A stretch of 64,000 nucleotides of DNA from a virus (taxonomy: Duplodnaviria > Caudoviricetes). The first letter of the stretch is position 1. The number at the start of each line of letters is the position of its first letter. The position numbers and the translations under genes were made by a program. The notes under the pieces were generated by a model. It was not told where the DNA came from. It saw nothing but the letters and a program-made list of their open reading frames with translations, and searched no databases. Shown piece after piece: positions 23,901 to 51,558 of the stretch. The stretch lies in IMG/VR virus record IMGVR_UViG_3300034418_005508, positions 1,551 to 65,550 of that record; one strand, written 5' to 3'.

Positions 23901-26900
23901 GCTACCAGGGTCAAGCATGAATGTAAACTGAGAGTTTCTAGGTGCGCAGTAAGAATCTACAAACTCAAATCCTGCAGGTTTTATTAAAGACCAATCTTTG
24001 CCTGCGCTGTTGTACCATATGTTTTGTTGTCCATTCCATCTGTGGTCACCACCCTTGATGATCTCTCGGTGTCTATATATCTGCTCTGGGTGATAGTGTG
24101 CACAAGCTACGTATGCCCCACCTCTGTATGAACGGATGCGGTATCTACGAGCACGCAGCTCGGACACGTCGCTGTAATCCTCTATGTCATCTACGTCTTT
24201 TTCTTTACCGCGCAGACGTCTGAATGCTCTCTTGAACAAACCACCGGGCTTGTCTTCTTGGTCAGCAGGTGGATTGTCACTACCGTAGGGATTGCTCACA
24301 TCTTCATCTGCATCGATGAACGTATCAGTCACGTCATAGATCTCACCATCTACGTTGTAGTCGACAGTGTTACCCAACGCTTGTGATATCCATCCCAGTG
24401 ATGGGAAGGTTGTGAGCTTTTCTTTGTTCTCCTCATCTTCTTTACGAGCCCCAAATACACCAGGCCCGCCCTGGAACTGTCTAAATGCAATAGCCGCCTG
24501 GCATTGTATGTGTGTGACTGTGTTAAGAGTTGGTCTCTTACGCAGCATGTTAAAATCGTGGAATGTAAAGACTGGGTTCGCGTAGTAACGGAACATCCTG
24601 TCTACAATCGTAGGGCCTGCGTAAGGAAACTGCTCAGCCCTGTTGGGGTTGGGTACTTGTTCCTGTCCCCTTCCTGCAGCATCTGGATTGTTGTCTGTGT
24701 GGTAAGCTGCTTTCCACTTTGACGCTACAGCCATAGCGGTCTCCATGTCGCTTCTCAATCCACCAAATGCGTAGAATGCATTGAAGTATGGCCCCTTACG
24801 CGCCAGCAGTCTGTTCTGGTTTGGGGAAGATGCATACCTAGGCATAGCTGGTATGGCCAAACTTTGCCCACTAATAAGTCTGTCAGAGTTTGTACGCTTA
24901 GCATAATAGATCTTGTACCCTTGTATTTCCTTAAGCATGTGCTTAGGAATCTTCAGGTTCTCCAATTGTATACCAAGTATTCTTACAGTCTCACTGGTTA
25001 TAAGCTTTTTCTTTACATACGAATCACTGGCAATCTTTTTATCTCTGTGATTGGATATCCATGCTGCTCCCAGGTAATCCAAATTGTTCTGATAGGTTTG
25101 TGGTATCCCTGTAGTTGGGTCTTCAAATGCAGCCACAAAACCTCTTTGAGATAGGTTACCTGCATTTTCAAAGAATATCCCACCGTAGTTTCGATCCCAA
25201 GCAAGTGGGCCATACTGAATGCCTGTATTGTTACCCGTCAGTATGTCCTCTCCTGCACCTGAGTATTTCACGTATGAAAAGTCAGGGTTGTAGTTAGATG
25301 GCATTCTATGATGTCTCACTTTTCTGCCATACAAGCTGTAGTACTTATGGTAGTAGCTATCAAACGAGTATCCGTCTGTATTGCCTGGGCCTATGATGTT
25401 TGTTTGTTCTCCTGTATCTCTGTCTACATCTGCGTGCACCCAATCAAAGTTCTCTGGGTATCTTTCACTCTGGTTCTCCCAGAACCCCATGTTCATTTTC
25501 AAAGCAGTATAAGCACCATCGTCTCCATGGTTAATTGGGTCACCTCCTGCGAAAGAGGTATTGTAGCTTGTATCAATGACTTGATATATACGTGCTACTT
25601 TAGACTGTTCTTTCAATTCAGGGGCGTGGAATCCGTGACTCTTAAGGTGAAGGTTCTCACCTTTGTGAGTGAACCTGTCACTCTCCATGAGGTAGTCTCC
25701 CAAACAATCTGTTTCATTGGGGTCTAGTTCGCCCAGCAAAAACTTGTAGTAAGTGTCCGTAGGTACTGGATCTCCATTGCAGAGACCAGAGTTGCTTATG
25801 ATATTTGCTTGCTGCTGCGTTGTAACCAACGGAACCTCACGTCTTCCTGGTATGTGGTACGCAAAGGTCTCTGTACCGTCTCTAAGTACGAATGATACGT
25901 AGAATGCATAGACGTCACCACGTCTAAAGCTCTTACCTCTGTACGAGAATCTGTTGTCTTTATATCCTCTACGTGTAGCCTGAGCGAGATTATAGCTAAC
26001 TCCGAATTTCCCATCACCGAGTCTTAGCTGTATCTGACCGCTGTCCGGGTATCTCAGGTAGTCTGCAATTGAACTAACGTAGTCTGGGTACATAGAGTCA
26101 ACAGCATCTATACCTAGGGTAGCAGGGTTTGCGGGAGCACCGTTTTGCTCTGACTGGTAGTAGGTTTGACCTATACCATCAAATCCTGCAGGGTGTTCTT
26201 TAACCGCATAGTACGGCATGACCATGGTACCATATCCCTTGTTTAGAGTTATGATGTCATACACCCTTCTATCAAAGCCTTCCACAGCTTTGACTACAGG
26301 CTTGATTTTAATGTTAGATGCGTATCTCTGGAACCCTATGTCTTTACGTGAGATCAGGTTACCTAAGTACAGTCTGTCGTTAAGTTGAGTAAGTGTCTTC
26401 GCAGTCAAGTACTTTACTTGATCTGCTACAATGTCAAGAAGACTTAATGTGCTTGCATCCTCTCTGCCGCTATATACGATGGTAAATATGCTGCTACTCA
26501 GCCCGAAGTTAGAACTGCTTCGTTGTTCAGATGCTTGTCCTGAAGTTTCTACAAACGGTGCTGGAGGGGGCGATGTTCTTCTGTCTGCGACGAAATCTTC
26601 AGTATCAATACTTGGATCATTGAACGCTCCGGTAGGAGGAGTGGTGTTACCTACGATGTCAAGTGTATTGATACTATCATATGCATCGTCATCATTTGTG
26701 CTCTGGATCTGTATTCTGTCCAGCTTGTACACGTTCTCTGCATTCCCTATGCGCTGTATTACAGCAGGCTGCAGGTACTTGTACTGCACCGTCTTTGGTA
26801 TGTATACCTCCCAGTGTACGGACTTCGTTGTTGTTGTCCCACCCTGTGCCCCAATAACAATGTCTGCTGGTACTGTTGTATCGGGTTCTGGGATGATGTA

Positions 26901-27593
26901 AACTGGGTTAGATACCACGAAGTAGTTCGTCTCCACAAAGTCTTCGTCAGCATATGCAAGTGCAAGGTGATATGTGCCTGATCTTACTGCACCACCTTCA
27001 AACACATATGCATTCTTGATACGAGAGTGTGTGCCCACTTCAGGGAACAAGCTTAGCTTATCTACAGTGTAGTTGTTCTCCCCATACAAGACCTCGAACG
27101 CACTAGCGCCAGGGGCTATGGCAAACCACTGCAGTTGTCTAGTTACATTAAATGTCCTTGGTGGGTTAAAGTCGGATACGTAAGACGCTTCTGTGATCGT
27201 CTCATCTATGACGTAGTAGTTGTCCGTGAAGTAAACAATGACATCGTTCTTAGCATCTCTTCTGTACTCACCTATAATAGGATGGGATCTCTTGAAGTTG
27301 AGTTTATCGCTGCGGTACAGTACGGTTGTCTCTTTCTTGACTGGGTCAACAAGTATGATCTCGCAGCTTGTATTTTGATTTACCCCAATGCCGAAGATGA
27401 TCAGCCTTTCTTCGTCAATTGGTATTGCACCAACGACGTCTACGTTCAACGATACGGCAAGCTCATTGCCCCATTCGTTGCTCATAGTGCCTGTCTCTAC
27501 GCTTACTGTAGCGTTGAGCGCATCTCTGTACGTCCCATCAGGCTGTTCAGCCTTGGACGTATCTTTAGCCATACCTCCAATAAACTTCTTCAT
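20958..27593 (-). CDS. Tail stabilisation / muzzle protein (P22 gp10-like, crAss type)
   Basis: 2211 aa. N-terminus GGMAKDTS..QPDGTYRDALNAT, internal TLTQLNDRLYLGNL, SFRRGDVYAFYV, GYKIYYAKR, C-terminal WTLSY..WISRHSYVP. Synteny after the ring protein. Confidence 0.85.
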   Translation of the reverse strand: MKKFIGGMAKDTSKAEQPDGTYRDALNATVSVETGTMSNEWGNELAVSLNVDVVGAIPIDEERLIIFGIGVNQNTSCEIILVDPVKKETTVLYRSDKLNFKRSHPIIGEYRRDAKNDVIVYFTDNYYVIDETITEASYVSDFNPPRTFNVTRQLQWFAIAPGASAFEVLYGENNYTVDKLSLFPEVGTHSRIKNAYVFEGGAVRSGTYHLALAYADEDFVETNYFVVSNPVYIIPEPDTTVPADIVIGAQGGTTTTKSVHWEVYIPKTVQYKYLQPAVIQRIGNAENVYKLDRIQIQSTNDDDAYDSINTLDIVGNTTPPTGAFNDPSIDTEDFVADRRTSPPPAPFVETSGQASEQRSSSNFGLSSSIFTIVYSGREDASTLSLLDIVADQVKYLTAKTLTQLNDRLYLGNLISRKDIGFQRYASNIKIKPVVKAVEGFDRRVYDIITLNKGYGTMVMPYYAVKEHPAGFDGIGQTYYQSEQNGAPANPATLGIDAVDSMYPDYVSSIADYLRYPDSGQIQLRLGDGKFGVSYNLAQATRRGYKDNRFSYRGKSFRRGDVYAFYVSFVLRDGTETFAYHIPGRREVPLVTTQQQANIISNSGLCNGDPVPTDTYYKFLLGELDPNETDCLGDYLMESDRFTHKGENLHLKSHGFHAPELKEQSKVARIYQVIDTSYNTSFAGGDPINHGDDGAYTALKMNMGFWENQSERYPENFDWVHADVDRDTGEQTNIIGPGNTDGYSFDSYYHKYYSLYGRKVRHHRMPSNYNPDFSYVKYSGAGEDILTGNNTGIQYGPLAWDRNYGGIFFENAGNLSQRGFVAAFEDPTTGIPQTYQNNLDYLGAAWISNHRDKKIASDSYVKKKLITSETVRILGIQLENLKIPKHMLKEIQGYKIYYAKRTNSDRLISGQSLAIPAMPRYASSPNQNRLLARKGPYFNAFYAFGGLRSDMETAMAVASKWKAAYHTDNNPDAAGRGQEQVPNPNRAEQFPYAGPTIVDRMFRYYANPVFTFHDFNMLRKRPTLNTVTHIQCQAAIAFRQFQGGPGVFGARKEDEENKEKLTTFPSLGWISQALGNTVDYNVDGEIYDVTDTFIDADEDVSNPYGSDNPPADQEDKPGGLFKRAFRRLRGKEKDVDDIEDYSDVSELRARRYRIRSYRGGAYVACAHYHPEQIYRHREIIKGGDHRWNGQQNIWYNSAGKDWSLIKPAGFEFVDSYCAPRNSQFTFMLDPGSKTYLPGQRNLKTAESSSFKGAQYIFNRGGESSIVMALVSGLPHLKGLVPFKGNAIPGFPWYLGDGSDDGGGEYGPFNIAAWGDDDKFLFPDAWFQASKDPKPVRPIPDHAVYLYGSSVTTENSNFKGLNYTLAGADYEWGYPMAWLINVCSLKTDVYTPFDKQELVWTGYYYSIDEEFKEWEDKYNLAEGACYAALKTGTTAAINDLDFTSAGGSTVLSPVKKYFSGAESTEVYGGDTYISKYAFRTTSHSYGHSWFRASSALGDAGPSGASGLNSTDALKVIGNPGTNGVNLGYIQNTRQKDVPDFLSLNDFLTNWGTAGGMSVWQGNFITTITDTTYPEFPNSTEVGKIESFISETLLNANNWQQGNSNPVTSLFTFMVESDDNIGLRHQKDSEKGQATKFFDFNTAAEVLFSPPTQDFTKQDQLLYEDHFSFVQDKRVAVPFPKVRAGTEENDQFRNRIIRSKSATGALSDRYREFLANDYADIPKKRGDITDMFTMNDTLYVHTEKALFQTKGNEQLELGSVKAFIGSGDIFAIPPTELQESEIGYGGTMSGLSSYTTEVGHFYVSRRSRKVHMLTQGITEVMGNMNHWFRENIPFEIERYGINVDAHEFPYYPDAPTNTNVPMGFIVGYDPKFKRIILTKREPLPTQTLIDGLQDGTIEIQNNMFFAVQQNNSKTGVKLSKSEREYTHRRNLEAFRENTAIDKLGPSDTAREIASDINHPANKGNVKSGPIGLSNPTYFTQSGWTLSYLPDLQIWISRHSYVPDIFITGEQTYYTMYKGSVYMHNDEDNPGNFYNTLYNFELEFIDNANPAMAKLYSNVYYWADAKSRSEDYTTEFKRQTFPIFDRFYVYNTTQISGEFTEINYLNNCRLVDGIWYINSFRDLAAVVVNTNSYINTGEPNVVGKLTTKVESTREDTPMFTYEGVPNPEYINAEKQWYEQKKFIGHYLGVRLISNNESKNLIYLYSAGTKFRNSYR

Positions 27594-28615
27594 GCTATAG
27601 AGTTGGTGCTGTAGTTACCTCTGTACAAATTCTCTCTTGTGTTGAGAGTTCCCATCACGTTGTCAAACTCGCTGATACGTGGTACGAGTCTAACCCACTG
27701 GTTCATGAACGATTCGTATCTCGCCATGTCTGGGTACTTAGCTTCATTACGAGCCTGTGTACAGTAGAACTTCCACTGCTGGTCTGCGAAGCTGTAATCG
27801 ATTCCGTTTGTTGATGGATCAAATGATGCACCAAGCAACAGCTTCTTGTATATGTACCAGAACATAGCTTCCTTGAAGCTGATGTCGTCTGGTATCAATG
27901 GCCAGCATTCTGTATCTGTTGCAAATGCTGTGTACGACAAGCAGAGCTTACCTGTTCTGAATGACGTCTTGATTCTATCGTTCTCTACGAGGTAACACTC
28001 GTTAGACGTAGTGAATTCGTTCACACACTTATCGCAGTGTATGCCTCTAGGGAAGTTAGTTGTGCAGTACTGTATTGGTGTGAGATTACCTACAGTCGGG
28101 TTCATGTATGCTGTATATATTACCTGAGCATCTGCAACAAGTTTGTTGAGATCTTTGTCTGTAGTTTTTCTAGTTTTTTCTAGACCGTTTACAGTAGTGT
28201 CAAAGGCATTAGCTATTAGTGAAGTAGATTGAGCACTACTAGCGAAGAAGTTTAAACTGGTAGCTATCCCGTCTAGGTAAGGGCCATAGAGATTTCCTAG
28301 GTCGCTGTACTCTTTTGTCAGGTCTGTTATCTCTTTTCTTAGATCTGCAATCTTAGCACTAAGAGACTGTTCTTGCTCTGTTTGATTGATCGCAACCTGG
28401 TTGATGTAGTATACATCTGGAGGTAGTGTTGCTTTGAAGTCATCTACTTCAATGATGCACCCTTTGCTTTCTACGTGCGCACCAGCACCAATGTGTTCGA
28501 GTGCTTCCCCAATCCATTCAACAGCATCGTAGATCCAGTTACCGTCACCAGGGTTCAAGTCACGCATGACTTTCCTGATGATCGCTTTACATGATATAGT
28601 CTTATATGTCGCCAT
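27590..28615 (-). CDS. Tail tubular / ring protein (P22 gp4-like) with helical insertion
   Basis: 341 aa. EWIGEALEHIG, IKTSFRTG.LCLSY.AF..D...PLIPDD.SF.EA..WYI, W.FYC.QA. Immediately upstream of the muzzle. Confidence 0.8.
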   Translation of the reverse strand: MATYKTISCKAIIRKVMRDLNPGDGNWIYDAVEWIGEALEHIGAGAHVESKGCIIEVDDFKATLPPDVYYINQVAINQTEQEQSLSAKIADLRKEITDLTKEYSDLGNLYGPYLDGIATSLNFFASSAQSTSLIANAFDTTVNGLEKTRKTTDKDLNKLVADAQVIYTAYMNPTVGNLTPIQYCTTNFPRGIHCDKCVNEFTTSNECYLVENDRIKTSFRTGKLCLSYTAFATDTECWPLIPDDISFKEAMFWYIYKKLLLGASFDPSTNGIDYSFADQQWKFYCTQARNEAKYPDMARYESFMNQWVRLVPRISEFDNVMGTLNTRENLYRGNYSTNSIA

Positions 28616-29084
28616 GCTTCTTGAATCTTAAGTATGCTAAGTCATCGTTTTTCAGGAGTGATGTTAACTTCTCCTTGTTCCCCTTGATTCCTCGGGTTGG
28701 GGTAAACCTGTATGCAGACTTGTTAGATATCTTACATCTAGACTTCTGCCAGTGATATTTGCAGTACCAGGGGTCAGTGTAGTAGATAAACCACTTCTCA
28801 CCTTCCCCTGATTCTGCGTCGTAGAGCTGCTTACCTTCTGCAAGCAGTTCTTGTTTGTACTTGTTGCTCTCCCACCAGTCTATCGTAGGCTTACTGGGAT
28901 TGCGCTCTATGCGTCGTATTGACAAGGTGGACAGGTTGCTGCCCATGCTGAACTCCTTACCATCAAGGATCATACTGATGACCTCCATGTTGAACTCTTC
29001 ACACAGTTGCTTAAACAGTCGTGTTTCGATGGGGTCTTCAATATTCTTTACATAGTCCTTATGTATGTCCTTGATGGTATGCAT
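28602..29084 (-). CDS. crAss-type IHF-like DNA-binding protein
   Basis: 160 aa. ILDGKEFSM..NL..LSIRR...IDW.ES pattern, at the conserved position upstream of the ring and muzzle genes. Confidence 0.65.
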   Translation of the reverse strand: MHTIKDIHKDYVKNIEDPIETRLFKQLCEEFNMEVISMILDGKEFSMGSNLSTLSIRRIERNPSKPTIDWWESNKYKQELLAEGKQLYDAESGEGEKWFIYYTDPWYCKYHWQKSRCKISNKSAYRFTPTRGIKGNKEKLTSLLKNDDLAYLRFKKHGDI

Positions 29085-29890
29085 TATCTAGTTATAGTCT
29101 TCTTCTTTCTTTCGTTCCTTCTGTTCATCCTACCGGCAACTCTTTCAGCCCTCTTCTTGCTTACAACTTTGCTTCTGTCTGCAGTGCGTTGGCTTTGAAC
29201 TTCATACAGTTCTTTGTCTCGCCTTGTTTCTCTGCGCTTGCTGACAACTTGCTTGTTTCTCTTCACATCTACATTGCGGCGCTTTCCTTCGATCGTTCTT
29301 CTTTTCTCTCCGCGCTTTGCCATGACCTGCTCTTCTTGATACGGTCCTTCGTCTTTCTTCTTTCTCTTACCACCCAGCAACTTTGTGCTAGTGTTTATTT
29401 TCTTTCTCCTCTTGTTGTACCTAGACTCAAGCTTTTTGGCTTTTGCTCTACGCTTGCCTACGCGGCCATCCTGTGGACCTACATCTCTGTTTGTAGTGCG
29501 TGTGACGTTCTTCTTGATTTCATAGGTGCCGTCTTCATTTTGAACAACTTCTTTAGTTCTTACTCTACGAGTTTTAACCCTACCTATATTTCTTGGCTTA
29601 CTGTTGGGGGTTCGTGAAGCCAATGTGGCAGGGCCACCTTCTTGTTTGATCACACCTCTACCCTTGAGGATGTCAGCTCTGGTCACTTTACCGTCACCAG
29701 TCAAATCAGGGAATCCACCTTCCTTCTTCTTGGAGTTGCTCATGCTACCAGGTCCTCCTGCCTTAGTGCAGCGTACACCCCAAGCATTTGCATATGCAGA
29801 CGGATACACATCGAACTTAGATCTAGCTGCTGCTTTACAGGGCCCGCTGATCTTGAATCCACCTTTCTTTTTAAAATCTGGATATTTCAT
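29084..29890 (-). CDS. Highly basic modular protein (268 aa), xxxGG-punctuated
   Basis: Start reassigned to ATG 29890 (MKYPD, after the upstream stop, matching the neighbour's MKYPS). Modules CKAAARSKFDVYPSAYANAWGVRC and FPDLTGDGKVTRADILKGRGV, then a K/R-rich tail. Confidence 0.8.
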   Translation of the reverse strand: MKYPDFKKKGGFKISGPCKAAARSKFDVYPSAYANAWGVRCTKAGGPGSMSNSKKKEGGFPDLTGDGKVTRADILKGRGVIKQEGGPATLASRTPNSKPRNIGRVKTRRVRTKEVVQNEDGTYEIKKNVTRTTNRDVGPQDGRVGKRRAKAKKLESRYNKRRKKINTSTKLLGGKRKKKDEGPYQEEQVMAKRGEKRRTIEGKRRNVDVKRNKQVVSKRRETRRDKELYEVQSQRTADRSKVVSKKRAERVAGRMNRRNERKKKTITR

Positions 29891-29901
29891 GTCTCTTGTT
29901 A

Positions 29902-30924
29902 TTATTCGTATGCTCCGCATCCCCCACCTTGACATCCAGAACCGCTGTTAGATCTTTCTTTTCTACGGTTCCTTCTAGCTGTTCTTCTAGCCTGTGAAGC
30001 TGCTTTCACCTTACCTGCAAAGTCTCTAACCTTGTCACGTCTCTTTTGACGTCTACGCTTTCTCTTCGCTTTGTTCTGAAGCTTTTCTCTGTATCTGTCG
30101 AGACCAACTTCCCCAGCACCCTGTCTGTCTGACTTCTTTCTTCTAGCACCTACGCGCTTGAATCTTTCAACTTTACGTCCTGTCTGTCTCTCGCTTCTAT
30201 CGGCTTCTCTTTGTTCCTTCTTGGTACGAGTGCCCTTGATAACTTCAACGTCTATTCTATCCTGCTCTGACTTAGGCAGTTCAAACATACCCCCGTTCTG
30301 CATTTTGCCTTCTTTGCGCTTTACTCTTCTGCGAGTACGAAGTCCTTTCTTACCAATTTTATATCTAGGCTTGTCTTTGGTAGACTCGTATCTAGCATCA
30401 GGGTTAGGCATGTCTCCTGGAGGGACGCGTCTTTTCCTACGGCGATCTGGAAGTCCGCCTCTTTGTAGTGCACCAGTATCCATACCTGCACCAACAGCTG
30501 ATGTATCTACACCACCACCAACAGCACCTGTCATTTCAGGCGCAGTTTCAGCCGGTTCTTCGGGTTGGTTCTTTCTGTCCTTGAACTCTTGAAGTCTATC
30601 TGCATAGCCTTCTTGTATTTTGTCAGCAAGGCCTGCATTGGCGTTGTTGTTAAATCCTCCAGCAGCACCTGCAGCAAGTCCTTTGAGTCTTTCTTTAAAG
30701 CCTTTGCCTTTGTTTGCTCTGAAGCCTTGTATAGCTCCCATGGCTCTACCGACACCAGTTCCAGACAAGAATCCTTTACGTCCTGCCTTTCTCAGTTCCT
30801 TACCTGTAAGGCCCTGTTCTTTAGCACGCTTACGTGCACCGGCACGACCTATAAGACCTCCAATGATTTTCTTACTGACACCCTTCTTACGGCGTCCCAT
30901 TCCTGGTAGTGATGGATATTTCAT
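29902..30924 (-). CDS. Highly basic modular protein (340 aa), xxxGG-punctuated
   Basis: K/R/G-rich. KIIGG, LQRGG, MQNGG; ends CQGGGCGAYE. Confidence 0.8.
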   Translation of the reverse strand: MKYPSLPGMGRRKKGVSKKIIGGLIGRAGARKRAKEQGLTGKELRKAGRKGFLSGTGVGRAMGAIQGFRANKGKGFKERLKGLAAGAAGGFNNNANAGLADKIQEGYADRLQEFKDRKNQPEEPAETAPEMTGAVGGGVDTSAVGAGMDTGALQRGGLPDRRRKRRVPPGDMPNPDARYESTKDKPRYKIGKKGLRTRRRVKRKEGKMQNGGMFELPKSEQDRIDVEVIKGTRTKKEQREADRSERQTGRKVERFKRVGARRKKSDRQGAGEVGLDRYREKLQNKAKRKRRRQKRRDKVRDFAGKVKAASQARRTARRNRRKERSNSGSGCQGGGCGAYE

Positions 30925-30941
30925 GTTCTCTTAGTTAGAGA

Positions 30942-30959
30942 GGGGAGCCGGAGCTCCCC
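30942..30959 (-). terminator. GC-rich hairpin with C(UCCG)G tetraloop; weak terminator or mRNA stabiliser
   Basis: Minus strand GGGGAGC-TCCG-GCTCCCC then TCTCTAACT, in the 43-nt gap between two CDSs. Confidence 0.6.
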
Positions 30960-30967
30960 CCCTGTTA

Positions 30968-32149
30968 TTAGACTTTGGGTCTACCCCAGTGTCTAGTCTT
31001 TCTTGTATTCGTAGTCTTTCTGCTGCGAGTCCTAATCTTTTTAGCCCTCTTCTTGCCTTTGCTGTGGTCATAATCGTACGCTCCGCATCCACCTGGTCCG
31101 CAGCTACCTCCGCTTTGGAATTTAGCTCTACCTCTGACTCTGGTCTTGAAGCCTGTGCTCTTCCTTGTTTTCTTTCTCTTAGGCATCTTTGGTCCTCTGC
31201 CGCCATCGTATGCTGCGCAAGGCTGTCCTTTTCTACATCCGCCTCTTTGACGTCTGTCGACCAAACCGCCCTTCAGCATCTCCTCAGTCATTGCGTCCTC
31301 TTCAGCTGCTGGATCTGCTCCTGCCATTGGATCGGCTTGAGCTGCCATAGACTGTTGCTGAGCTGCCATACCTTGATCCGCACCCACTCCCTGCATTCCC
31401 TGCTGGAAGTTTTGCTTCATGTTCTGGACACCAGCTTTCAAGTTACCGATACCCTGCTTTATCTGACCAGCTCTTACACCAGCTCCTGCTGCTGCACCCG
31501 CTGCCATTCTACCGAAGAATCCTTTACCTTGAGCTTTAGCTTCTTGTCTAGCAGCACGACGTGCCATACGTCTTTCCTTACCACCTTTCAATGCAGCTGC
31601 ACCCAACGCCATACCGAGAAGTGCTTTCTTAGGCTCTCCCCCATTTCTCAAACCTCTGTACGTTGTTGGCTCTGCCTCACCTCTTTTGACTGCTTGCCTA
31701 AACTCGTAGTTGTCTCTGATTCTAGCAGACGCCTTCTTCTGACGTACGCCTTTCTTCATCGTTCTTGCAGCGCTCCTAGTCTCTTTCTTGGTATTAGACT
31801 CACCAAGCATCTTCATGCCTTTCTTCATGTTAGCCTTACTCTTGGTAAGCTTCTTAGCAGAGCGCTTGATAGCCCCTGGGACTTTACCGAACTTGACTTC
31901 TTTAGAGTCTTCGATAAATGATTTTGGGTCTTTCTTTTTAGCTTCGCTCAAGCTTCCACCGGCTTGCATCTTACTTCTGTCTCCATGGGGAGCCGTTCGA
32001 CGCTTCTTGAGCTCTCTCCAGCGCTTTCTTGTCTCGCGGATTTTCTTGCGATCTTGTCTTCGAGCCTGACGCTTTTCTTTGCCTGGTTCCATGTCTTTGA
32101 TCATGATGGCACCTGTTGGGCGTTTGCCGCCACGTTGTTTGTAATTCAT
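30968..32149 (-). CDS. Highly basic modular protein (393 aa), xxxGG-punctuated
   Basis: KQRGG, MQAGG, LRNGG, MLKGG, RQRGG and FQSGG separate K/R-rich, Gly/Ala-rich and Cys-containing segments. Confidence 0.8.
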   Translation of the reverse strand: MNYKQRGGKRPTGAIMIKDMEPGKEKRQARRQDRKKIRETRKRWRELKKRRTAPHGDRSKMQAGGSLSEAKKKDPKSFIEDSKEVKFGKVPGAIKRSAKKLTKSKANMKKGMKMLGESNTKKETRSAARTMKKGVRQKKASARIRDNYEFRQAVKRGEAEPTTYRGLRNGGEPKKALLGMALGAAALKGGKERRMARRAARQEAKAQGKGFFGRMAAGAAAGAGVRAGQIKQGIGNLKAGVQNMKQNFQQGMQGVGADQGMAAQQQSMAAQADPMAGADPAAEEDAMTEEMLKGGLVDRRQRGGCRKGQPCAAYDGGRGPKMPKRKKTRKSTGFKTRVRGRAKFQSGGSCGPGGCGAYDYDHSKGKKRAKKIRTRSRKTTNTRKTRHWGRPKV

Positions 32150-32158
32150 AATTTCTAA

Positions 32159-32383
32159 TTATTTTTTCCAAGATACCCGCTTAGATGATTGTTTTCTGCG
32201 CATACCTGCTTTTGTACATGCGCTCATAGTAGGTCTGCAGGCCGGGTACCCTGTCTTCCTACTTTTCTTTGCTGACGATCTACCACAAGGGACAAACTTA
32301 CCTGCGGCTTTAGCTGCTTTGCAGTCTACCCAGCCACGGCCCTGGTTACGACCAAACCATTTTTTAAGTCCCTCGCTAGCCAT
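32159..32383 (-). CDS. Small basic Cys-containing phage protein
   Basis: 74 aa. LKKWF..WVDCK..PCGRS..YPACRPT..C, a pattern I recall from small proteins of marine phages. Confidence 0.75.
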   Translation of the reverse strand: MASEGLKKWFGRNQGRGWVDCKAAKAAGKFVPCGRSSAKKSRKTGYPACRPTMSACTKAGMRRKQSSKRVSWKK

Positions 32384-32772
32384 TACGCTTTAGTCCAGTA
32401 GCCGTATTCGTAGCTAATTTCGTCAGTTGTGCTGCTTGTTACTCTGATACCTTTGGCTCCTTTTACTGGGAGGAATATTGCTTCTCCCTCAGCCAAGTCT
32501 GCAAAGTCTTGAGTGTTCTCTGCTGTGCTTAGGACGAGGACAGGTGTGCCTCCGTCTTTGCTTACGTACTTGATATATACGTATGTGGTATCAGTTACAC
32601 CTGTACCTAGAATGGTATTTGGTCCTGTAGAACTAGTTACAGTGCCTGAGGCCAAGTTTACTACAGGGGCTTCTATGGTCAGAGAGTCTGTTACAGATAT
32701 ACCAAACCCTGCGGTTGTTGTTGTGGACGACCCCGTAGATGTTAGTGACAGCCTTGATTTAATGTTTCCCAT
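32383..32772 (-). CDS. Hypothetical beta-rich structural protein
   Basis: 129 aa, T/S-rich. Resembles 36960-37349 (YVYIK...LAEGEAIFLP versus LVFLK...LGPGQFTLFP). Confidence 0.7.
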   Translation of the reverse strand: MGNIKSRLSLTSTGSSTTTTAGFGISVTDSLTIEAPVVNLASGTVTSSTGPNTILGTGVTDTTYVYIKYVSKDGGTPVLVLSTAENTQDFADLAEGEAIFLPVKGAKGIRVTSSTTDEISYEYGYWTKA

Positions 32773-32784
32773 TGTTGTTCGTTA

Positions 32785-33090
32785 TTAGCACCGGCAGTTC
32801 CACTTGCGCAGTGACTTATTGATTCTTGAATTAGGATCTCTCTTACCCTTAGATCCTGTTCTCTTTGCTTTCATTCCACACATACGTGAGCAGAATGACT
32901 TTCTCCTGGACTTGCGTTTACCTGAGGGGTTAGACTCAGTTACTGGAGCAGCAAGTTTGCTCCCCGGGTTAGCAGCTCTGTAGGATGCCCTACCTTTTGC
33001 ATTGAGACCTCCGCTTGGGTTTTTACCAGCTTTCCTAGTCCAAGCAGCTCCTCTCTGATACTGTCTTTTATTTTTACTGAAGTATGTCAT
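32785..33090 (-). CDS. Small basic phage protein, DUF6321-like
   Basis: 101 aa. AWTRKAGKNPSGGLNAKGRASY...RRKSFCSRMCGMK...SRINKSLRKWNC. Confidence 0.75.
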   Translation of the reverse strand: MTYFSKNKRQYQRGAAWTRKAGKNPSGGLNAKGRASYRAANPGSKLAAPVTESNPSGKRKSRRKSFCSRMCGMKAKRTGSKGKRDPNSRINKSLRKWNCRC

Positions 33091-33344
33091 AGCCCTAGGT
33101 CTTCTGCGGTTACTACTTCAGTCCAGTCTGTACCAGCTAAGATCGCTGTGATCTGAGAGTACGTGTATGTTGTCTTGCCTGAGAAAAAGTCAGGTAGTGG
33201 AGTCTGGTACTTGATGACAGCTTGTGTACCATCAAGTGAGTACCTCAACACAGTCTTGTCTGTGTAGGGTAGCTGATCAAAGTCAATTGTAGAATTGACG
33301 TCATCCAACTCTGTCTTCGGTATGATTACAAACTTCTTCATCAC
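33087..33344 (-). CDS. Hypothetical protein (tail-fibre-associated)
   Basis: 85 aa. IDFDQ..LRYSLDGT..IKY..P.F..YT..I..IL..W; ATGA-coupled to the LamG gene. Confidence 0.7.
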   Translation of the reverse strand: MMKKFVIIPKTELDDVNSTIDFDQLPYTDKTVLRYSLDGTQAVIKYQTPLPDFFSGKTTYTYSQITAILAGTDWTEVVTAEDLGL

Positions 33345-34147
33345 GGTGGAGTTGGGGTGGTTACAAATGCTGGATCACCTTCTGTTGTTGCAACTGTTGC
33401 CAAACTTCCTGAGTTTGTGAGATCGTTGTTAAGTCTGTACCAGTTTTGCAGAAATGCAGATGACGTGTAGTCTCCACTATCTGAGCTGATGTCGAACGTC
33501 TCTCCGCTGTTGTACAAAGCTGTGACTTCTGCTGCACTCAGTTGTGTTGTCCATGTAGCTATCTCATCAAACGTACCAGTTGCATGTCCTGAGTAAGCAC
33601 CGTTCGATCCTTGATACGCACCGAATGGCATATTAAATGGGACTCCAACAAGCGTTGCTTCTTGTACTGTACCTGTAGACGCGCTTGTGCTGATCTTTTC
33701 TACCCCGTCTACGTACAACTTAAACGTACCGTTAGTACTTGCCCCACCCTTTCTTAGTGTTACTACAAAATGCACATAGTCTGATGTGCTAGGGGTACCT
33801 GCTGCTGCTAACCCTGAGTATGCAACACCTCCTAGTTTAATATTTGTTTGCCAGTATACTGCTCCAATGTTCAGCGATCTTACAAATACTGCAGTAGTGT
33901 TAGCACCTGTAGTGGTGTCAAAGCCCATCAAGTAAAATGTCTGCCAAGAAGACACTTTAACCCAGAATGAGATAGAGAAATCACTTCTCATCAAGGTCTG
34001 CAAGGCACCAGATTTATAGGTCTTAATCACATCACCTGTCCCATCTAAGTCTATGGCATGCGTATTAGAGTAGGGAGCAACTCTCTCTACACTACCTGCA
34101 TCTACTATAGCAGCACCTGGACTTATATTTAGGCTGAGACCAAGCAT
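33341..34147 (-). CDS. Concanavalin A/LamG-like lectin-domain protein (probable receptor-binding or decoration protein)
   Basis: 268 aa. DFSISFWVK, HFVVT, KLYVDG, GTFDEIATW..LSAAEVTALYNSG. Confidence 0.85.
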   Translation of the reverse strand: MLGLSLNISPGAAIVDAGSVERVAPYSNTHAIDLDGTGDVIKTYKSGALQTLMRSDFSISFWVKVSSWQTFYLMGFDTTTGANTTAVFVRSLNIGAVYWQTNIKLGGVAYSGLAAAGTPSTSDYVHFVVTLRKGGASTNGTFKLYVDGVEKISTSASTGTVQEATLVGVPFNMPFGAYQGSNGAYSGHATGTFDEIATWTTQLSAAEVTALYNSGETFDISSDSGDYTSSAFLQNWYRLNNDLTNSGSLATVATTEGDPAFVTTPTPP

Positions 34148-34434
34148 TACTCACACTTCCTGTATGCTATGATAGCTCCACCTGTAAGTTGAAGTGAGCT
34201 GAAGTTTCCGAATATTGTCACTCCTTTAGGCAGAGTAGTGTCTGTATCCAGATCGTCTATGTTAGAAACGACTCCGCTTGCATCAAGTTGGGTGCTGTCT
34301 GCGATTACAGTAAAAGCTACAAACCTACCTGTAACAATGGTTGCACCATCTATAAGAACGCCTCCGCATTCACCTGTCCTTGCCTGTCGGTCAATGGAGC
34401 TCAGCAGTCTTTCTTCGTTTGTTGTATATGCCAT
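34147..34434 (-). CDS. Small structural protein
   Basis: 95 aa. C-terminal LPKGVTIFGNFSSLQLTGGAIIAY; TAATG coupling. Confidence 0.7.
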   Translation of the reverse strand: MAYTTNEERLLSSIDRQARTGECGGVLIDGATIVTGRFVAFTVIADSTQLDASGVVSNIDDLDTDTTLPKGVTIFGNFSSLQLTGGAIIAYRKCE

Positions 34435-34436
34435 GA

Positions 34437-35120
34437 TTATTGTCCTTGTTGTTTATCGTTAACGGTGTCGTTTATACTATTTGTTAGCATAGCGAATTCA
34501 CCTTGTACCAAACCTTGTGTTATAGCGCTAACCATATCTAAAGGTAATGGGTATGCCATCTGGTCGTCATAACAATAATCGTTTTCACATGTAGCAAATT
34601 TCCCTACTTCTTCGGGATCTTCGAACACGCCTCTAACGTTTATCTTTTCCATACCGTTAGGTTCGTAGACGTAAATATACTCATCAATGACGTAATAACG
34701 TGTAAGTCTAGATGTATATTTATCGTATGGAATCCATTCCAGTTCGTAGGGTTCCATCTTAGGTATGGTGTCTGCACCGTTTACTTTACCTATGAATGTA
34801 AAAGCATCAGTGAGATTGAACCTAACAGTCTTAGGCATTCTCCTGTTGGTTCGATATATGGTACATCCTGTAGGTACTGCAGGACCTATGGTTCCTTCGC
34901 AGCATCTAGCCCAGTTGACTCTTTCTAGGTCTATGCATCCCAGGTCTTGTTCTATGGTTTTAGAGACGTACCCATTCCGTGAGTAGTCTCTACGTATCAT
35001 CATAGCCCTGTAATGCTGGATGTTGAACTTTATCTGATCGATAGATATAAGTTCATCGTTACTGCTCCTGCCGCCCCTAAGCAGGTTCAGTATGTTATAT
35101 GCCATTTCGTCAAGAGTCAT
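34437..35120 (-). CDS. Tail ring (tubular) protein
   Basis: 227 aa. MTLDEMAYNI..IKF.I..YRAM.IR..QDLGC....VRGVFEDP..YPLP, typical of crAss ring proteins. Confidence 0.8.
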   Translation of the reverse strand: MTLDEMAYNILNLLRGGRSSNDELISIDQIKFNIQHYRAMMIRRDYSRNGYVSKTIEQDLGCIDLERVNWARCCEGTIGPAVPTGCTIYRTNRRMPKTVRFNLTDAFTFIGKVNGADTIPKMEPYELEWIPYDKYTSRLTRYYVIDEYIYVYEPNGMEKINVRGVFEDPEEVGKFATCENDYCYDDQMAYPLPLDMVSAITQGLVQGEFAMLTNSINDTVNDKQQGQ

Positions 35121-35400
35121 CGTACTTCTTTTTAACGTGCACTAGCTCAGCACACTTTTCGTATTCTTCGTTGTCTTCAAAGTATTGTATGATGTCGTCT
35201 ACAATCATGCGAAATGTCTCAGGCGCAGAGGGGTCAAAGGGCAGGAAGATCATGTCGTCTGCTTTGTCCAAAAGCTCACGCACAGTCATCCCACCCGTAG
35301 CTATCGAATATGCATTTCGATAAGCCTCGTCAAGTATCTGTATCTCCTCTTCTAATGAGGAAATATTCTCTTCTTCGTCTCTGTCTTCAAACTCTAACAT
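35110..35400 (-). CDS. Acidic hypothetical protein with C-terminal UVR-like EEYEKCAEL motif (96 aa)
   Basis: Start reassigned to ATG 35400 to avoid a 160-nt overlap with the phosphoesterase gene. Confidence 0.65.
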   Translation of the reverse strand: MLEFEDRDEEENISSLEEEIQILDEAYRNAYSIATGGMTVRELLDKADDMIFLPFDPSAPETFRMIVDDIIQYFEDNEEYEKCAELVHVKKKYDDS

Positions 35401-36520
35401 TTGCCTGTAAATAGCCCTCAAGTCCTGTGGACTTATTCCATATATATGCTTGCCCTGTTCTTTTAGCTTCATACCCCATTTGCTTATGCCATTCATCGTT
35501 AGGACAAATAGAAGGTATGAACCGTACTTTGATACCTCTGTACTCATTTACCATTTCTTTGTGGAGATGCCCGCAGTGCACTTCTCGGTGTTCTGTACGT
35601 GCAAACATCTCTGGTTTTTCAGTTGCCATTATTAGTGGCATGTCTGCAGGTTTCTCCTTATCACCATGTGTGAACATGATCATGTTCGTGCCATACTCGT
35701 AGTACTTGCGTGAATCATAGTCATTGTCCACGGTGACATTGGCATCATTTCTATACCATCCTGCTAACACATCTCCTGCATAGAACATGCGTTCGTAGTC
35801 ATGGTTACCTGATACAACGATTACATCTACCGGTGCTCTTTGCTTAAGGAAGTCGATCGCAGTAGTCATCAGTTGCCAGTAACCTCTAAAGGTATCCTTC
35901 CACCCAGCAGAGTCCTGCTGTGGTGTCCCTTTGGTTGTAGTACCTCTCATACCCTCAGAGTTCATACCGTCATTACCGATGGGAAGTATGAATCTTTCTA
36001 TATCAAGTCCCGCCGCTTTTCTCCAGAGTTCTTCCACCACCTTCATGTACTGCTTCTCAACCTGATCAAGTGTCAGGCTATGAAGCTTTCCGTAGTGGAT
36101 GTCGGGCAATGAGATCTCGTACGCTACTGGCTCAAGAGCAGGCTTGTAGTCTACTCTGTTAACCTTGGGGCTGTACTTAGCTGCAAAGCTTTCTATCTCA
36201 TCTTTGATTGCTTCGACGCTCATTGAGTCACCCTTTGTGACTACAGAGAATCTCTGCTGTCCTGACACAGTCTGCCAGAACTTTACACTAGAAACGTCGG
36301 ACGGGCTGATGCCGTTCTTGTCAAGGAACTGTTCGAACTCACTAATGACACTCTCGTTATCATTCGTGTTTTCTTCATTACGTGCCAGCTTCCTGGCTTC
36401 GTACAACGCTGTCTCACAATCTTCGATAGGGCAATTAAGTCTCTCAGATAGTACGTCAGCGCTTTTCTTAAGGTATCCTCGCCTCTCGGCGATGAAGTCT
36501 TTGATTTCGTTTACAGTCAT
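35387..36520 (-). CDS. Calcineurin-like metallophosphoesterase
   Basis: 377 aa with the full motif set DIHYG, GNDG, GNHD, HGD, GHLH. Confidence 0.9.
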   Translation of the reverse strand: MTVNEIKDFIAERRGYLKKSADVLSERLNCPIEDCETALYEARKLARNEENTNDNESVISEFEQFLDKNGISPSDVSSVKFWQTVSGQQRFSVVTKGDSMSVEAIKDEIESFAAKYSPKVNRVDYKPALEPVAYEISLPDIHYGKLHSLTLDQVEKQYMKVVEELWRKAAGLDIERFILPIGNDGMNSEGMRGTTTKGTPQQDSAGWKDTFRGYWQLMTTAIDFLKQRAPVDVIVVSGNHDYERMFYAGDVLAGWYRNDANVTVDNDYDSRKYYEYGTNMIMFTHGDKEKPADMPLIMATEKPEMFARTEHREVHCGHLHKEMVNEYRGIKVRFIPSICPNDEWHKQMGYEAKRTGQAYIWNKSTGLEGYLQANVRV

Positions 36521-50109: not shown

Positions 50110-51558
50110 TTACGATGCAGTGCAAGTCAAGTCGAGCGAAGTATCGAATCTGCGGAGCAGGATACCAGCTGTCTTCAACATGTGCACAGAAGCACCGTCT
50201 ATATCTGAAGCTCGCGTGTCGGTTTCAGTGAAGCCCTTAGGCACAACTGAACCTGCAACACACCAGCGGAGCATTTCGCGTCCCTTCTTGTTCAACATCT
50301 GGAGGTTGTTCTCCCCGTCATAAGATGACTGGTCAACAAACACCATTCTGTATGACTCAAGCGGCAATCCAGACTCAGGGTGCTTCTGAGAAGCCTGAGC
50401 AACAGGGCCGTGATCGAACAATGGGACCTTAACCACGTTCACCGTGTGACCATCGACGTGGTCGTACGAGGTGAAGTAACCAGTGATACCCAAGCTACGA
50501 CCGCTACCAGTGATAAACTTAGACTCAGTAGTTCTGAGGTAAGAGTTTGTAGTAGTACCGACACCGCTAGAGCTAACACCGTTAGCGTAGTAGCTGCGGA
50601 GAGCCTTGTCGAACTCACGTGCACCACCAATACCGGTGTACAAAGTCACCTGCTTGTCGGTAGCATCCGTCATGCCGTAGAACAAGTCACCAATCGTGTC
50701 CTCCAACTTCTTCTGCGTGAGAGTAGAGTAGGTGTCCTTATTGATGATCTGCTCGAACAAACCAGGACCAGATATAACTGGTTGGCCATTCTCGTCCAAC
50801 ATTCTGTTAGATCCTTTGTCATCATAAGTCTTGTTTCCGTACCAGTAGTACATCTCACACTCTTCCTTAAACTTGAGCATGTGACGGTACTCCTCGTAGT
50901 CCATCCACAACTTCGTAGAAGAACCTTCCTTAGTTGGGAGGTTGAACTCTGCTACGTAGTCTTTAGCGTTACCAGAGAAGTGGTAAGACTTACGCACAGT
51001 ACCAATCTTAGAACGGACCAACCCGGGAGCTGTCCAGTTAGAAGCGTTACCGCGTGAGAAGTCAATACCAACGTTAGCAAACAACATGCCCCAAAGAGCA
51101 CCTGCTGCACGGTCCTCTGAAGGAATAGCTGTAACGTCTGGAGAAACGATTTGGAGTTCATACTCGTAACCGTTACCAACTGATCTAGGTTCGCTCATAA
51201 TCCGAGCCAACACACCAGTCTGTGAGACCAAAGTGTATGGGAAAATGAACCACTTGTCAGGGAAGGTCAATCTGAAGGGTGCACCTCCAGTTCCGTCTCC
51301 TGTGTTAGCGACAACTGGGCGAACGTTAACTTCATGGGTCTTGACACGATACTCAAATTCAAATCTATTGATTGACTTCGTGTTACCAACCCCTTCAGTC
51401 AAGAAGGAAAGAGGAAACTTCTTTTCTTCACGTCCGGCCAAGTGCGTAATGATGGGAGAGAGCTCTTCGGGCTTCTCCATCAAAGCATTAACCAACGAGT
51501 TTGTGTCGGTCATCTGCTGGTCATTGTAGTACGTTTTAAGTACCTGCATCAAAGCCAT
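50110..51558 (-). CDS. Major capsid protein (crAss-like, HK97 fold)
   Basis: 482 aa. FPLSFLTEG, RKSYHFSGN, KLWMDYEE, GPGLFEQI, LYTGIGG..EF, HVDGH.V.V...PLFD, HPESGLPLESYR. Confidence 0.92.
   Translation of the reverse strand: MALMQVLKTYYNDQQMTDTNSLVNALMEKPEELSPIITHLAGREEKKFPLSFLTEGVGNTKSINRFEFEYRVKTHEVNVRPVVANTGDGTGGAPFRLTFPDKWFIFPYTLVSQTGVLARIMSEPRSVGNGYEYELQIVSPDVTAIPSEDRAAGALWGMLFANVGIDFSRGNASNWTAPGLVRSKIGTVRKSYHFSGNAKDYVAEFNLPTKEGSSTKLWMDYEEYRHMLKFKEECEMYYWYGNKTYDDKGSNRMLDENGQPVISGPGLFEQIINKDTYSTLTQKKLEDTIGDLFYGMTDATDKQVTLYTGIGGAREFDKALRSYYANGVSSSGVGTTTNSYLRTTESKFITGSGRSLGITGYFTSYDHVDGHTVNVVKVPLFDHGPVAQASQKHPESGLPLESYRMVFVDQSSYDGENNLQMLNKKGREMLRWCVAGSVVPKGFTETDTRASDIDGASVHMLKTAGILLRRFDTSLDLTCTAS

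Follow-up and report, generated by a model that had tools for sequence, protein, structure and literature searches.

Predicted lysine- and arginine-rich mosaic proteins encoded between the ring protein genes of an aquatic crAss-like phage

The usual view of tailed phages is that their DNA is packed naked, accompanied by a few ejection proteins. The internal proteins IPI, IPII, and IPIII of phage T4 are basic, are encoded by the hypervariable ip locus in the late gene block, and are thought to travel and be injected with the DNA. Adenoviruses package the very basic, DNA-condensing core proteins pVII, V, and Mu (available text of PMC10548178 and PMC4189039). In Bacteroides phage crAss001, the cargo proteins Gp45 and Gp46 are partly unfolded, are stored in the capsid and the tail barrel, and are expected to be ejected (available text of PMC10172136). 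A further set of basic phage proteins is encoded in IMG/VR record IMGVR_UViG_3300034418_005508, a viral record of 65,550 bp with an estimated completeness of 78%, of which a stretch of 64 kb (the window) was analyzed. Five open reading frames (ORFs), designated B268, B340, B393, s74, and s101, lie here between the genes for the ring proteins of an aquatic crAss-like phage. Judged from their relatives, the three large ones are for the most part unfolded proteins rich in Lys and Arg, mosaics that gene fusion, gene fission, and indels have put together out of a pool of short portable modules, and s74 and s101 are free-standing members of the same pool. The reading favored here, by analogy and tentatively, is that the five basic proteins are packaged, DNA-associated internal proteins that leave the particle with the DNA.

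The initial annotation described K/R-rich ORFs of 268, 340, and 393 amino acids (aa) and two small ones inserted between tail genes. All are present on the minus strand, between the CrAss_Ring_2 and CrAss_Ring_1 genes. Their isoelectric points (pI) range from 11.1 to 11.7, in comparison to 4.3 to 5.4 for the eight neighbors measured, and one copy of each sums to a charge of +230. Among the 46 listed minus-strand ORFs, the five rank as the most basic, the next one having a Lys-plus-Arg fraction (K+R) of 0.23. Relatives are designated here by L numbers (related viral-contig loci; ring protein 1 as the query gave 79 of them at 42 to 70% identity) and P numbers (representative homologous proteins from other contigs). 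The MKYP start noted for two of the large ORFs is seen in B268 and B340 and is kept in relatives. Because relatives also begin with MKYPDFKK, the start of B268 is placed at 268 aa and not at an upstream ATG (283 aa). s74 is 97% identical to its counterpart in L002, with 21 synonymous and 2 nonsynonymous codon differences, and the first 58 codons of B268 show 19 synonymous and 10 nonsynonymous differences from the same locus. Codon changes against L002 are concentrated at third positions, and indels relative to the slot proteins of relatives keep the reading frame. These comparisons show that all five basic ORFs are genuine genes and evolve under purifying selection.

B268, B340, and B393 are not one read-through product, because they lie in different frames with gaps of 9 to 43 nucleotides (nt) between them. 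Paralogy among the five basic proteins finds no significant support by BLASTP; the best pair, B340 and B393, reaches an E value of 0.49, so the likeness by eye of their Gly/Ala-rich blocks and "GGL-DRR" stretches lacks statistical support. A 310-aa open frame is present antisense to B393 (30989 to 31921, plus strand), with several more opposite B340 and B268. None of them is a gene; they are by-products of the purine-rich coding strand, for which the GC skew is -0.24 and the AT skew -0.35 in positions 30001 to 32000.

Module A and module B make up most of the N-terminal part of B268, where residues 1 to 86 share 81% identity with both L002 and L003. As initially annotated, KKKGG precedes a C...SAYANAW...C module and KKEGG precedes FPDLTGDGKVTRADILKGRGV in this protein. 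Module A matches the profile phrog_27331 at positions 3 to 40 of 50, with E values of 1.1e-6 and 9.3e-8 (PHROGs have no curated cutoff). The loop of module B resembles the dockerin/EF-hand family, its matches to Pfam Dockerin_1 lying below the threshold (13.0 and 16.1 bits against a cutoff of 22.9; E of 0.12). The AlphaFold2 model of residues 1 to 90 contains three short helices only and, with a mean predicted local distance difference test (pLDDT) score of 55, is too poor for a fold search.

A search with residues 1 to 90 of B268 against 1.84 billion representatives (E ≤ 0.001) gives 929 matches, and architectures were classified in the best 150 of these with the A and B halves as separate queries. 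Module A is found alone in 83 and module B alone in 51, A precedes B in 10, B precedes A in 5, and A occurs twice in 1. With both flanks limited to ≤30 residues, stand-alone copies number 23 for module A and 12 for module B among the best 150 of 929, and module A forms the C-terminal end of a larger protein in 43, although some of these metagenome-predicted proteins may be truncated. The ORF carrying module A was also measured in 77 viral-contig loci (80 were fetched with a stand-alone module A protein, 3 of them without a match to the pattern). It is ≤80 aa long in 40 loci, 81 to 150 aa in 5, and longer in 32, a few of these long ORFs being false matches of the loose pattern. The short homologues are unlikely to be contig-end fragments, because the 40 ORFs of ≤80 aa are complete and inside contigs and because cultured genomes annotate them. 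The proposal that both modules exist as independent mini-proteins is thus borne out by stand-alone copies and by copies that form the N- or the C-terminal end of larger proteins, with A ahead of B as well as B ahead of A; the suggested separate search of the pieces returns stand-alone ORFs and differing orders, and the homologues are not always full length and colinear.

The same variation is visible at one position of the genome. The gene directly upstream of p160, a conserved gene next to that of ring protein 1, encodes module A only in L004 and L005 (54 to 55 aa), A and B in L003 (102 aa), A and B with a tail in L002 (162 aa), and A and B with a long tail in the window (B268, 268 aa). The basic tail of B268 is absent in the counterparts from L003, L004, and L005 and different in that from L002. 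P0002, which is 95% identical to residues 1 to 88 of B268, shows an indel of ∼10 residues straight after the GG that closes module B, and L003-type relatives carry an additional ASYKKGG unit ahead of module A.

B340, which has no Pfam or PHROG family, is a fusion as judged from its homologues. Its L003 counterpart P0160 is 61% identical over 317 aligned residues (63% by BLASTP) and lacks residues ∼167 to 207, a block of ∼40 residues running from VPPGDMP to KRKEGK, which forms the end of P0161 and P0169. The first ∼205 residues resemble P0153, P0157, P0158, and P0169 (149 to 188 aa) and a 147-aa gene of L002, all of which end where B340 continues with MQNGG and MFELPKSEQD. The C-terminal part, M3, whose general ending is GCQGxGCGAYE, is joined elsewhere to module A (P0006, P0156, P0162, and P0166), to A plus B (P0167), or to another N-terminal part (P0168 and P0172) and so occurs in at least 4 different N-terminal contexts. 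An ESM Atlas search with B340 returns only viral clusters at 0.76 to 0.77, under the meaningful level. In B393, residues 88 to 169 are 68% identical to the N-terminal part of a 368-aa protein of L002, and the motif SKEVKFG stands ahead of this block in B393 and behind it in L002. A search for shorter homologues of B393 gives two near-identical fragments and one 45-aa protein and is uninformative on stand-alone modules. Gly/Ala-rich blocks are present in both B340 and B393. The module pool thus comprises, as far as these alignments define it, A (SAYA), B (the DxxGDG loop), the CGAYE-ended M3, the SKEVKFG motif, the Gly/Ala-rich blocks, and others, and the initial description of a modular mosaic with portable modules, stand-alone elsewhere and variable in order, is upheld.

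Positions, strands, and properties of the basic genes, their modules, and the bordering genes in the window
Feature	Coordinates	Strand	Description	Measure or basis
B268	29084..29890	(-)	268-aa K/R-rich mosaic (leader, module A, linker, module B, basic tail)	K+R 0.31, pI 11.1, net charge +54
Module A	29750..29857	(-)	B268 residues 12-47; two Cys around a PSAYANAW core	phrog_27331 profile
Module B	29633..29713	(-)	B268 residues 60-86; FPDLTGDGKVT...GRGVIKQEGG, EF-hand/dockerin-like loop plus short helix	homologue architectures
Basic tail of B268	29087..29632	(-)	B268 residues 87-268	differs among relatives
B340	29902..30924	(-)	340-aa K/R-rich mosaic, starts MKYP	K+R 0.28, net charge +57
M3	29905..30288	(-)	B340 residues 213-340; charged helical tail ending GCQGGGCGAYE	fusions in relatives
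B393	30968..32149	(-)	393-aa K/R-rich mosaic, Gly/Ala-rich middle, two CxAY(D) motifs	K+R 0.27, net charge +73
s74	32159..32383	(-)	74-aa basic protein, four Cys (WVDC...PCGR...YPAC)	K+R 0.28, net charge +19
s101	32785..33090	(-)	101-aa basic protein, Pfam DUF6321	K+R 0.29, net charge +27
T129	32383..32772	(-)	non-basic 129-aa ORF among the basic ones, outside the K/R set	pI 4.6
p160	28602..29084	(-)	conserved 160-aa gene flanked by B268 and ring protein 1; candidate HU/IHF-like	tblastn, BLASTP
Ring protein 1	27590..28615	(-)	downstream slot border	Pfam CrAss_Ring_1, E 3e-54
Ring protein 2	34437..35120	(-)	upstream slot border	Pfam CrAss_Ring_2, E 5e-35

The small proteins connect the locus to other aquatic phages. 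s101 belongs to DUF6321, which it matches over the complete profile (positions 1 to 72 of 72; E of 1e-20; 74.6 bits against a cutoff of 28.5). Its residues C67, C71, C99, and C101 are invariant in 31 aligned sequences, a four-Cys pattern taken from an alignment made for this analysis. By tblastn, s101 is found in 489 GenBank phage records at 38 to 63% identity, mostly T4-like cyanophages but also pelagiphages and others. The AlphaFold2 model of DUF6321 shows three helices with a mean pLDDT of 66, and Foldseek finds no match to it in the PDB at E ≤ 10. s74 matches phrog_23735 weakly (E of 3.2e-4, 22.3 bits, profile positions 3 to 66 of 81) and is found by tblastn in 8 records of roseophages, flavophages, and other phages. 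The pattern W(V/F)...KWVD...PCGR...YPxC, recognized by eye, is encoded by separate genes in the phages P-SCSP2 and HTVC027P.

The closest arrangements come from these and one further cyanophage. The protein PRSM4_120 of Prochlorococcus phage P-RSM4 (365 aa; phrog_727; record note "T4-LIKE GC: 119"), encoded between the terminase genes gp16 and gp17, has the s101 type as its C-terminal domain and also contains an s74-like module and a variant of module A, three modules fused in one cyanomyovirus protein. Prochlorococcus phage P-SCSP2, a cultured T7-like phage, carries five small genes between the scaffolding and major capsid genes, among which module A (56 aa), a B-like DxxKDG loop (41 aa), the s74 type (86 aa), and DUF6321 (85 aa) are found separately. 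PRSM4_120 and the P-SCSP2 genes share these modules with the proteins of the window and differ from them in having neither long K/R tails nor M3; annotated as hypothetical, they lend no function. In Pelagibacter phage HTVC027P, gp44 (88 aa) begins with module B and continues with a basic tail. Module A, the s74 type, and DUF6321 are represented there by gp49, gp50, and gp52, respectively, and the Lys-rich gp47 carries the motifs YKVGG and MYKKGG. The podovirus-type copy of module A is present in 11 GenBank phage records; a tblastn search of GenBank phages with P0011 gives no match.

Neighbors of stand-alone module A were scanned in 37 loci (125 ORFs), drawn from 40 loci with 149 ORFs; the 24 ORFs dropped are minus-strand ORFs, all those of L106, L122, and L124, and four short plus-strand ORFs. 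A DUF6321-type neighbor is found in 11 of the 37 loci and a strong match to phrog_23735 in 11 others, and a terminase, portal, adaptor, scaffold, or capsid gene is present in 16 and a lysis gene in 3, proportions that come without a matched control of random small phage genes beside head genes. On these alignments and gene orders, A, B, the s74 type, and DUF6321 move as a group among unrelated aquatic phages, separate or fused, adjoining head or packaging genes. Instead of being packaged, the proteins might be intracellular nucleic acid chaperones, made late to condense or organize replicated phage DNA for the terminase or to bind RNA. The genes adjoining terminase genes in cyanomyoviruses and some podovirus contigs would suit such a role, as would the adjacent candidate HU/IHF-like gene of the window and the extreme basicity of the proteins. 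In T7-like phages, however, the genes lie between scaffold and capsid, the usual place of head components, and a purely intracellular role is considered quite unlikely. It differs from the packaged one only in the final location of the protein.

The slot that holds the basic genes is hypervariable. In 68 loci with both ring proteins and p160, the two ring genes are separated by anything from 509 bp, where p160 is the sole gene in between, to 8644 bp. Of these 68 loci, 56 have one or more ORFs of ≥45 aa with K+R ≥ 0.20 between ring protein 2 and p160, and the other 12 have none. These K/R-rich slot ORFs vary in number from 1 to 4 per locus and in length from 50 to 507 aa. Within loci of ∼20 kb, 105 of 121 ORFs with K+R ≥ 0.22 fall in the slot, compared to 15 upstream and 1 downstream. 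The tblastn similarity of the three large proteins is limited to short stretches except in the two closest loci. The distant cultured or gut relatives Fpv1 (a Flavobacterium phage), cr4_1 (a gut crAss phage), and crAss001 have no K/R-rich gene in the slot, where an HU/IHF-like gene is accompanied by one 88-aa ORF or an intron endonuclease.

Such variability invites the explanation that the ORFs are fast-evolving filler, low-complexity sequence tolerated in a recombination hotspot without a specific function. The tails are poorly kept even between close relatives, 12 of 68 loci lack such ORFs, and the purine-rich coding strand leaves long antisense open frames. This explanation is hardly credible in view of modules that are under purifying selection, retain 38 to 63% identity between unrelated phage groups, form hundreds of representative clusters, and conserve their Cys positions.

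Many K/R-rich slot proteins of relatives (e.g., in L015, L018, L024, L041, L048, and L059) share conserved C termini, either a Cys-bearing tag (MGGKKC or GEVCFD) or GGF(I/L)EPxxPxLDDL; B340 itself ends in CGAYE. These terminal peptides could be docking signals.

The initial annotation considered the large proteins cassette-like polyproteins shuffled at GG junctions. In 63 nonredundant K/R-rich slot proteins of relatives, GG occurs 433 times compared to 236 expected, a 1.8-fold enrichment (z = 14.8). It stands in the context (Y/M/F)-(K/Q)-x-G-G. Counted from the first Gly, Tyr is enriched 11-fold at position -3, with Lys or Gln favored at -4 and -2 and Met at -1; Phe, Leu, or Pro follows GG. 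The forms present here are YKQRGG, MQAGG, and FQSGG in B393 and MQNGG and LQRGG in B340. GG lies upstream of module B in 60 of 78 copies, downstream in 62, and on both sides in 52. For module A, GG is contained in the C-terminal KAGGP of 91 of 108 copies, and no more than 22 copies have it immediately ahead of the module; where the module is stand-alone or C-terminal, M-G or SPLxK takes that place. In local alignments, 668 of 2522 internal ends (26.5%) are ≤3 residues away from a GG, 1.6 times the 16.8% of random positions, the ends being not mutually independent. A family-wide motif that often flanks modules is thus confirmed, while its use at every boundary is not, given the 22 of 108 upstream sites of module A. 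The motif is read as a conserved cap or joint of modules and not as a demonstrated junction rule. It is most likely a flexible, recombination-tolerant joint and perhaps a docking handle. The two KK(E/K)GGF stretches of B268 (29711 to 29728 and 29855 to 29872) form an 18-nt direct repeat with 16 of 18 nt identical, and the stretches coding for GGCGAY(E/D) in B340 and B393 (29903 to 29925 and 31071 to 31093) agree in 20 of 23 nt. These short direct repeats could be microhomology for recombination or could be due to chance.

Adenain cuts the adenovirus core proteins next to Gly-Gly, following the rule (M/I/L)-X-G-G. By analogy with this trimming and with that of the T4 internal proteins, a phage or host protease could cut after (Y/M/F)-(K/Q)-x-G-G and release small basic peptides inside the capsid. 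In line with such processing, the motif caps many modules (module B in the proportions given above), stand-alone homologues start or stop near GG sites, and N termini such as MNYKQRGG and MKYPDFKKKGG carry the motif and would suit a removable leader. The motif is nevertheless unlike the adenain rule: relative to the first Gly, positions -3 and -1 show enrichment of hydrophobic residues, and position -2, which would be P4 for a cut after the second Gly and is hydrophobic in that rule, is dominated by Lys and Gln, with Met modestly enriched. Peptidase_C48, C39, S78, and S77 are not found at or above the cutoff in this record and four relatives (three of them 98 to 100% complete), and Peptidase_C5 gives one match of 11.5 bits in these five records, below the cutoff and interrupted by a stop codon; the negatives for S77 and C5 are weak, because control genomes are silent too. 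In Pfam scans of 44 window ORFs, no protease family is found, the sole hydrolase being the cell wall Amidase_2. Together with the few upstream GG sites of module A, these results render processing improbable. Of the polyprotein proposal, the mosaic of shuffled modules stands, and the cutting finds no counterpart among the five peptidase families at the cutoff.

The initial annotation had further held that the N-terminal module of the first cargo protein occurs as a free mini-protein, which finds no support among the GenBank matches. This module comprises the first 64 residues (20767 to 20958) of an 890-aa protein (18286 to 20958) and ends in KKQEGG. Its 40 GenBank matches are all from crAss-like or gut phages, and in the two examined it is located inside a large protein. 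It is 60 to 72% identical to a stretch inside crAss001 Gp45 (residues ∼384 to 421) and also lies inside DAC15_59; its placement therefore varies between phages, N-terminal here and internal in Gp45 and DAC15_59. The available text of PMC10172136 describes a portal-bound domain of Gp45 that these residues directly precede. A relationship between HTVC027P gp44 and the N terminus of the cargo-position protein was considered and rejected (E of 1.7).

According to the favored reading, the basic proteins would be made late and loaded into the particle with or beside the DNA. They would bind DNA through their charge, neutralizing and compacting it or lining the tail or portal channel, and would leave the particle with the DNA at infection. 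The Cys pairs might bind metal or form disulfides; the tail of crAss001 is described as disulfide stabilized in the available text of PMC10172136. With the T4 internal proteins, the proteins described here have in common their small to medium size, their basic character, a hypervariable late locus, and short conserved N-terminal leaders. They differ in sharing no Pfam or PHROG similarity with them and in being module mosaics, and a T4-type prohead protease is not detected (S77 and S78 in none of five records, the S77 control being silent and this result therefore weak). The adenovirus core proteins belong to eukaryotic viruses and are richer in Arg, and their clan CE type of protease is likewise not detected here (C48 in none of five records; C5 only below the cutoff). 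The crAss001 cargo proteins (C1 and C2) come from the same virus order and the same late gene block. Their genes lie downstream of the muzzle gene, compared to a position upstream, between ring protein 2 and the HU/IHF-like gene, for the basic ORFs, which share no Pfam or PHROG family with them. Neither "basic" nor "positively charged" is used in the main text of PMC10172136 as far as it is available.

Several points weigh against this reading. Its functional part rests on gene position, composition, and analogy. Contigs from four metatranscriptome-labeled runs match parts of B393, B340, s101, and their neighbors at ≥95% identity, most at ≥99%, but RNA-library contigs over the cluster could be DNA carryover and cannot show transcription. 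The 12 of 68 loci without basic slot genes indicate that these genes are dispensable in the slot or encoded elsewhere, and the neighbor proportions of module A lack the control mentioned above. Within the window, GG is not significantly enriched in B340 (8 observed, 7.8 expected from composition) or B393 (9 and 7.0), with 5 and 2.5 in B268 (p = 0.09); [KQRE]xGG is enriched only in B268 among the three large proteins (4 compared to 0.9; p = 0.014) and is not enriched in the candidates at cargo positions C1 and C2 (p = 0.26 and 0.73). Protamines are Arg-dominated proteins with well over half basic residues. The proteins described here, with a K+R of 27 to 31% and Lys and Arg mixed, lie well below true protamines and do not belong to the Arg-dominated protamine or sperm type of condensers. 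The Gly/Ala-rich amphipathic blocks would equally fit a membrane-active role.

The proteins could also be packaged and injected as effectors and not as DNA counter-ions, breaching or bridging the host envelope or blunting host defenses, as is the case for T4 IPI and the Dar proteins of P1. A hypervariable locus typical of arms-race genes, the Gly/Ala-rich blocks of B340 and B393, the polycationic stretches, and the position of the slot within the tail-barrel gene block would agree with this, and crAss001 Gp45 and Gp46 are expected to form a channel (available text of PMC10172136). Judged by eye, the basic proteins show no hydrophobic stretch of transmembrane length. The same modules, moreover, occur in phages of cyanobacteria, SAR11, roseobacters, and Bacteroidota, and this spread across hosts makes a target independent of the host, such as the DNA of the phage itself, more plausible than an effector tied to a particular host. 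An effector function is accordingly rated as unlikely.

A wider, decidedly improbable extension of the favored reading would see in the shared kit of mini-modules (A, the DxxGDG loop, the s74 type, DUF6321, and Lys-rich tails) a capsid-internal "phage chromatin" of tailed phages of aquatic bacteria, in which the GG tag would load combinatorially assembled precursors into the head and an unrecognized protease would cut them there. This would amount to a protamine-like system of DNA condensation with processed proteins, whose parts would be exchanged across crAss-like, T7-like, and T4-like lineages. Literature searches found no description of such mosaic basic phage proteins and none of DUF6321, and nothing of this kind on protamine-like phage virion proteins, marine crAss-like proteomes, or lysine-rich disordered internal proteins; the matches for DUF5872, DUF5754, and phrog_727 concern algal and polinton-like viruses in the text available. 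If the favored reading is correct, it would point to DNA packing or delivery with the help of proteins in abundant aquatic crAss-like phages, cyanophages, and pelagiphages, and would assign a function to numerous small genes now called "hypothetical," among them DUF6321 and several PHROG families of unknown function. The mosaics also illustrate clearly, in a natural system, how the shuffling of very short modules builds proteins. Since cultured carriers are available, P-SCSP2 on Prochlorococcus MED4 and HTVC027P on Pelagibacter, the question is directly testable.

Between the basic genes and ring protein 1, the gene p160 is found by tblastn in 78 of the 79 related loci. Its product (pI 8.8) aligns with crAss001 Gp42, which is annotated as HU/IHF-like, at an E value of 0.004 and 24% identity over 111 residues in BLASTP. 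This weak alignment and the same position upstream of ring protein 1 are the reason why p160 is treated, with moderate confidence, as the HU/IHF-like gene. It has no Pfam match, and its matches to PDB sequences are at chance level only (E of ∼0.6). In P0171, a gene call of 236 aa from another contig, an M3-like basic tail passes directly into a p160 homologue, pointing to either a frameshift or the merging of two calls where these neighboring genes meet in a relative.

The insertion also contains non-basic genes. T129, rich in Thr, Ser, and Gly, is kept in 8 related loci at 30 to 72% identity, and profile scans assign it to no Pfam or PHROG family. Further non-basic ORFs encode proteins of 85 aa and 95 aa and a 268-aa Laminin_G_3 protein (33341 to 34147). 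Because of these genes, the slot is regarded as a hotspot of a general kind, which may take up fibre- or lectin-like proteins as well. The slots of L004 (3435 to 7198) and L005 (3123 to 7241) hold extra proteins of 689 to 805 aa (K+R of 0.01 to 0.02) and 348 aa.

By its gene content, the source phage is crAss-like. Every gene of the window is on the minus strand. A crassvirus major capsid protein is encoded at 50110 to 51558 (Pfam E of 2e-77), a P22-like portal gives a weak Pfam match under the cutoff, and the 2211-aa protein at the muzzle position (20958 to 27593) matches the muzzle C-terminal domain weakly. In the direction of transcription, ring protein 2 is followed by the 95-aa ORF, the Laminin_G_3 protein, the 85-aa ORF, s101, T129, s74, B393, B340, B268, p160, ring protein 1, the muzzle protein, proteins of 890 and 935 aa in the positions of the crAss001 cargo proteins, and a 3887-aa ORF. 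The corresponding order in crAss001 is Gp40 (ring protein 2), Gp41 (intron endonuclease), Gp42 (annotated as HU/IHF-like), Gp43 (ring protein 1), Gp44 (muzzle), and the cargo proteins Gp45 and Gp46 (available text of PMC10172136). The phage is called aquatic and not marine because the runs holding the stretch are labeled freshwater metagenome. Megablast of window positions 27000 to 36000 against GenBank phages gives no match.

Some observations concern other genes. At E ≤ 0.001, Pfam gives no match to the giant ORFs at 3803 to 15466 (3887 aa) and 39408 to 46277 (2289 aa); the former is in the position of the crAss virion RNA polymerase proteins. In cr4_1 (L083), gp18 to gp20 contain several in-frame stops under translation table 11, which is what a phage with stop codon reassignment would show. 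In the window, a 145-aa ORF (35110 to 35547) overlaps by ∼160 nt the 3′ end of a gene for a 377-aa calcineurin-like phosphoesterase (35387 to 36520), whose Pfam match of 26.8 bits lies just below the 27-bit cutoff; one of the two starts is probably mis-set.

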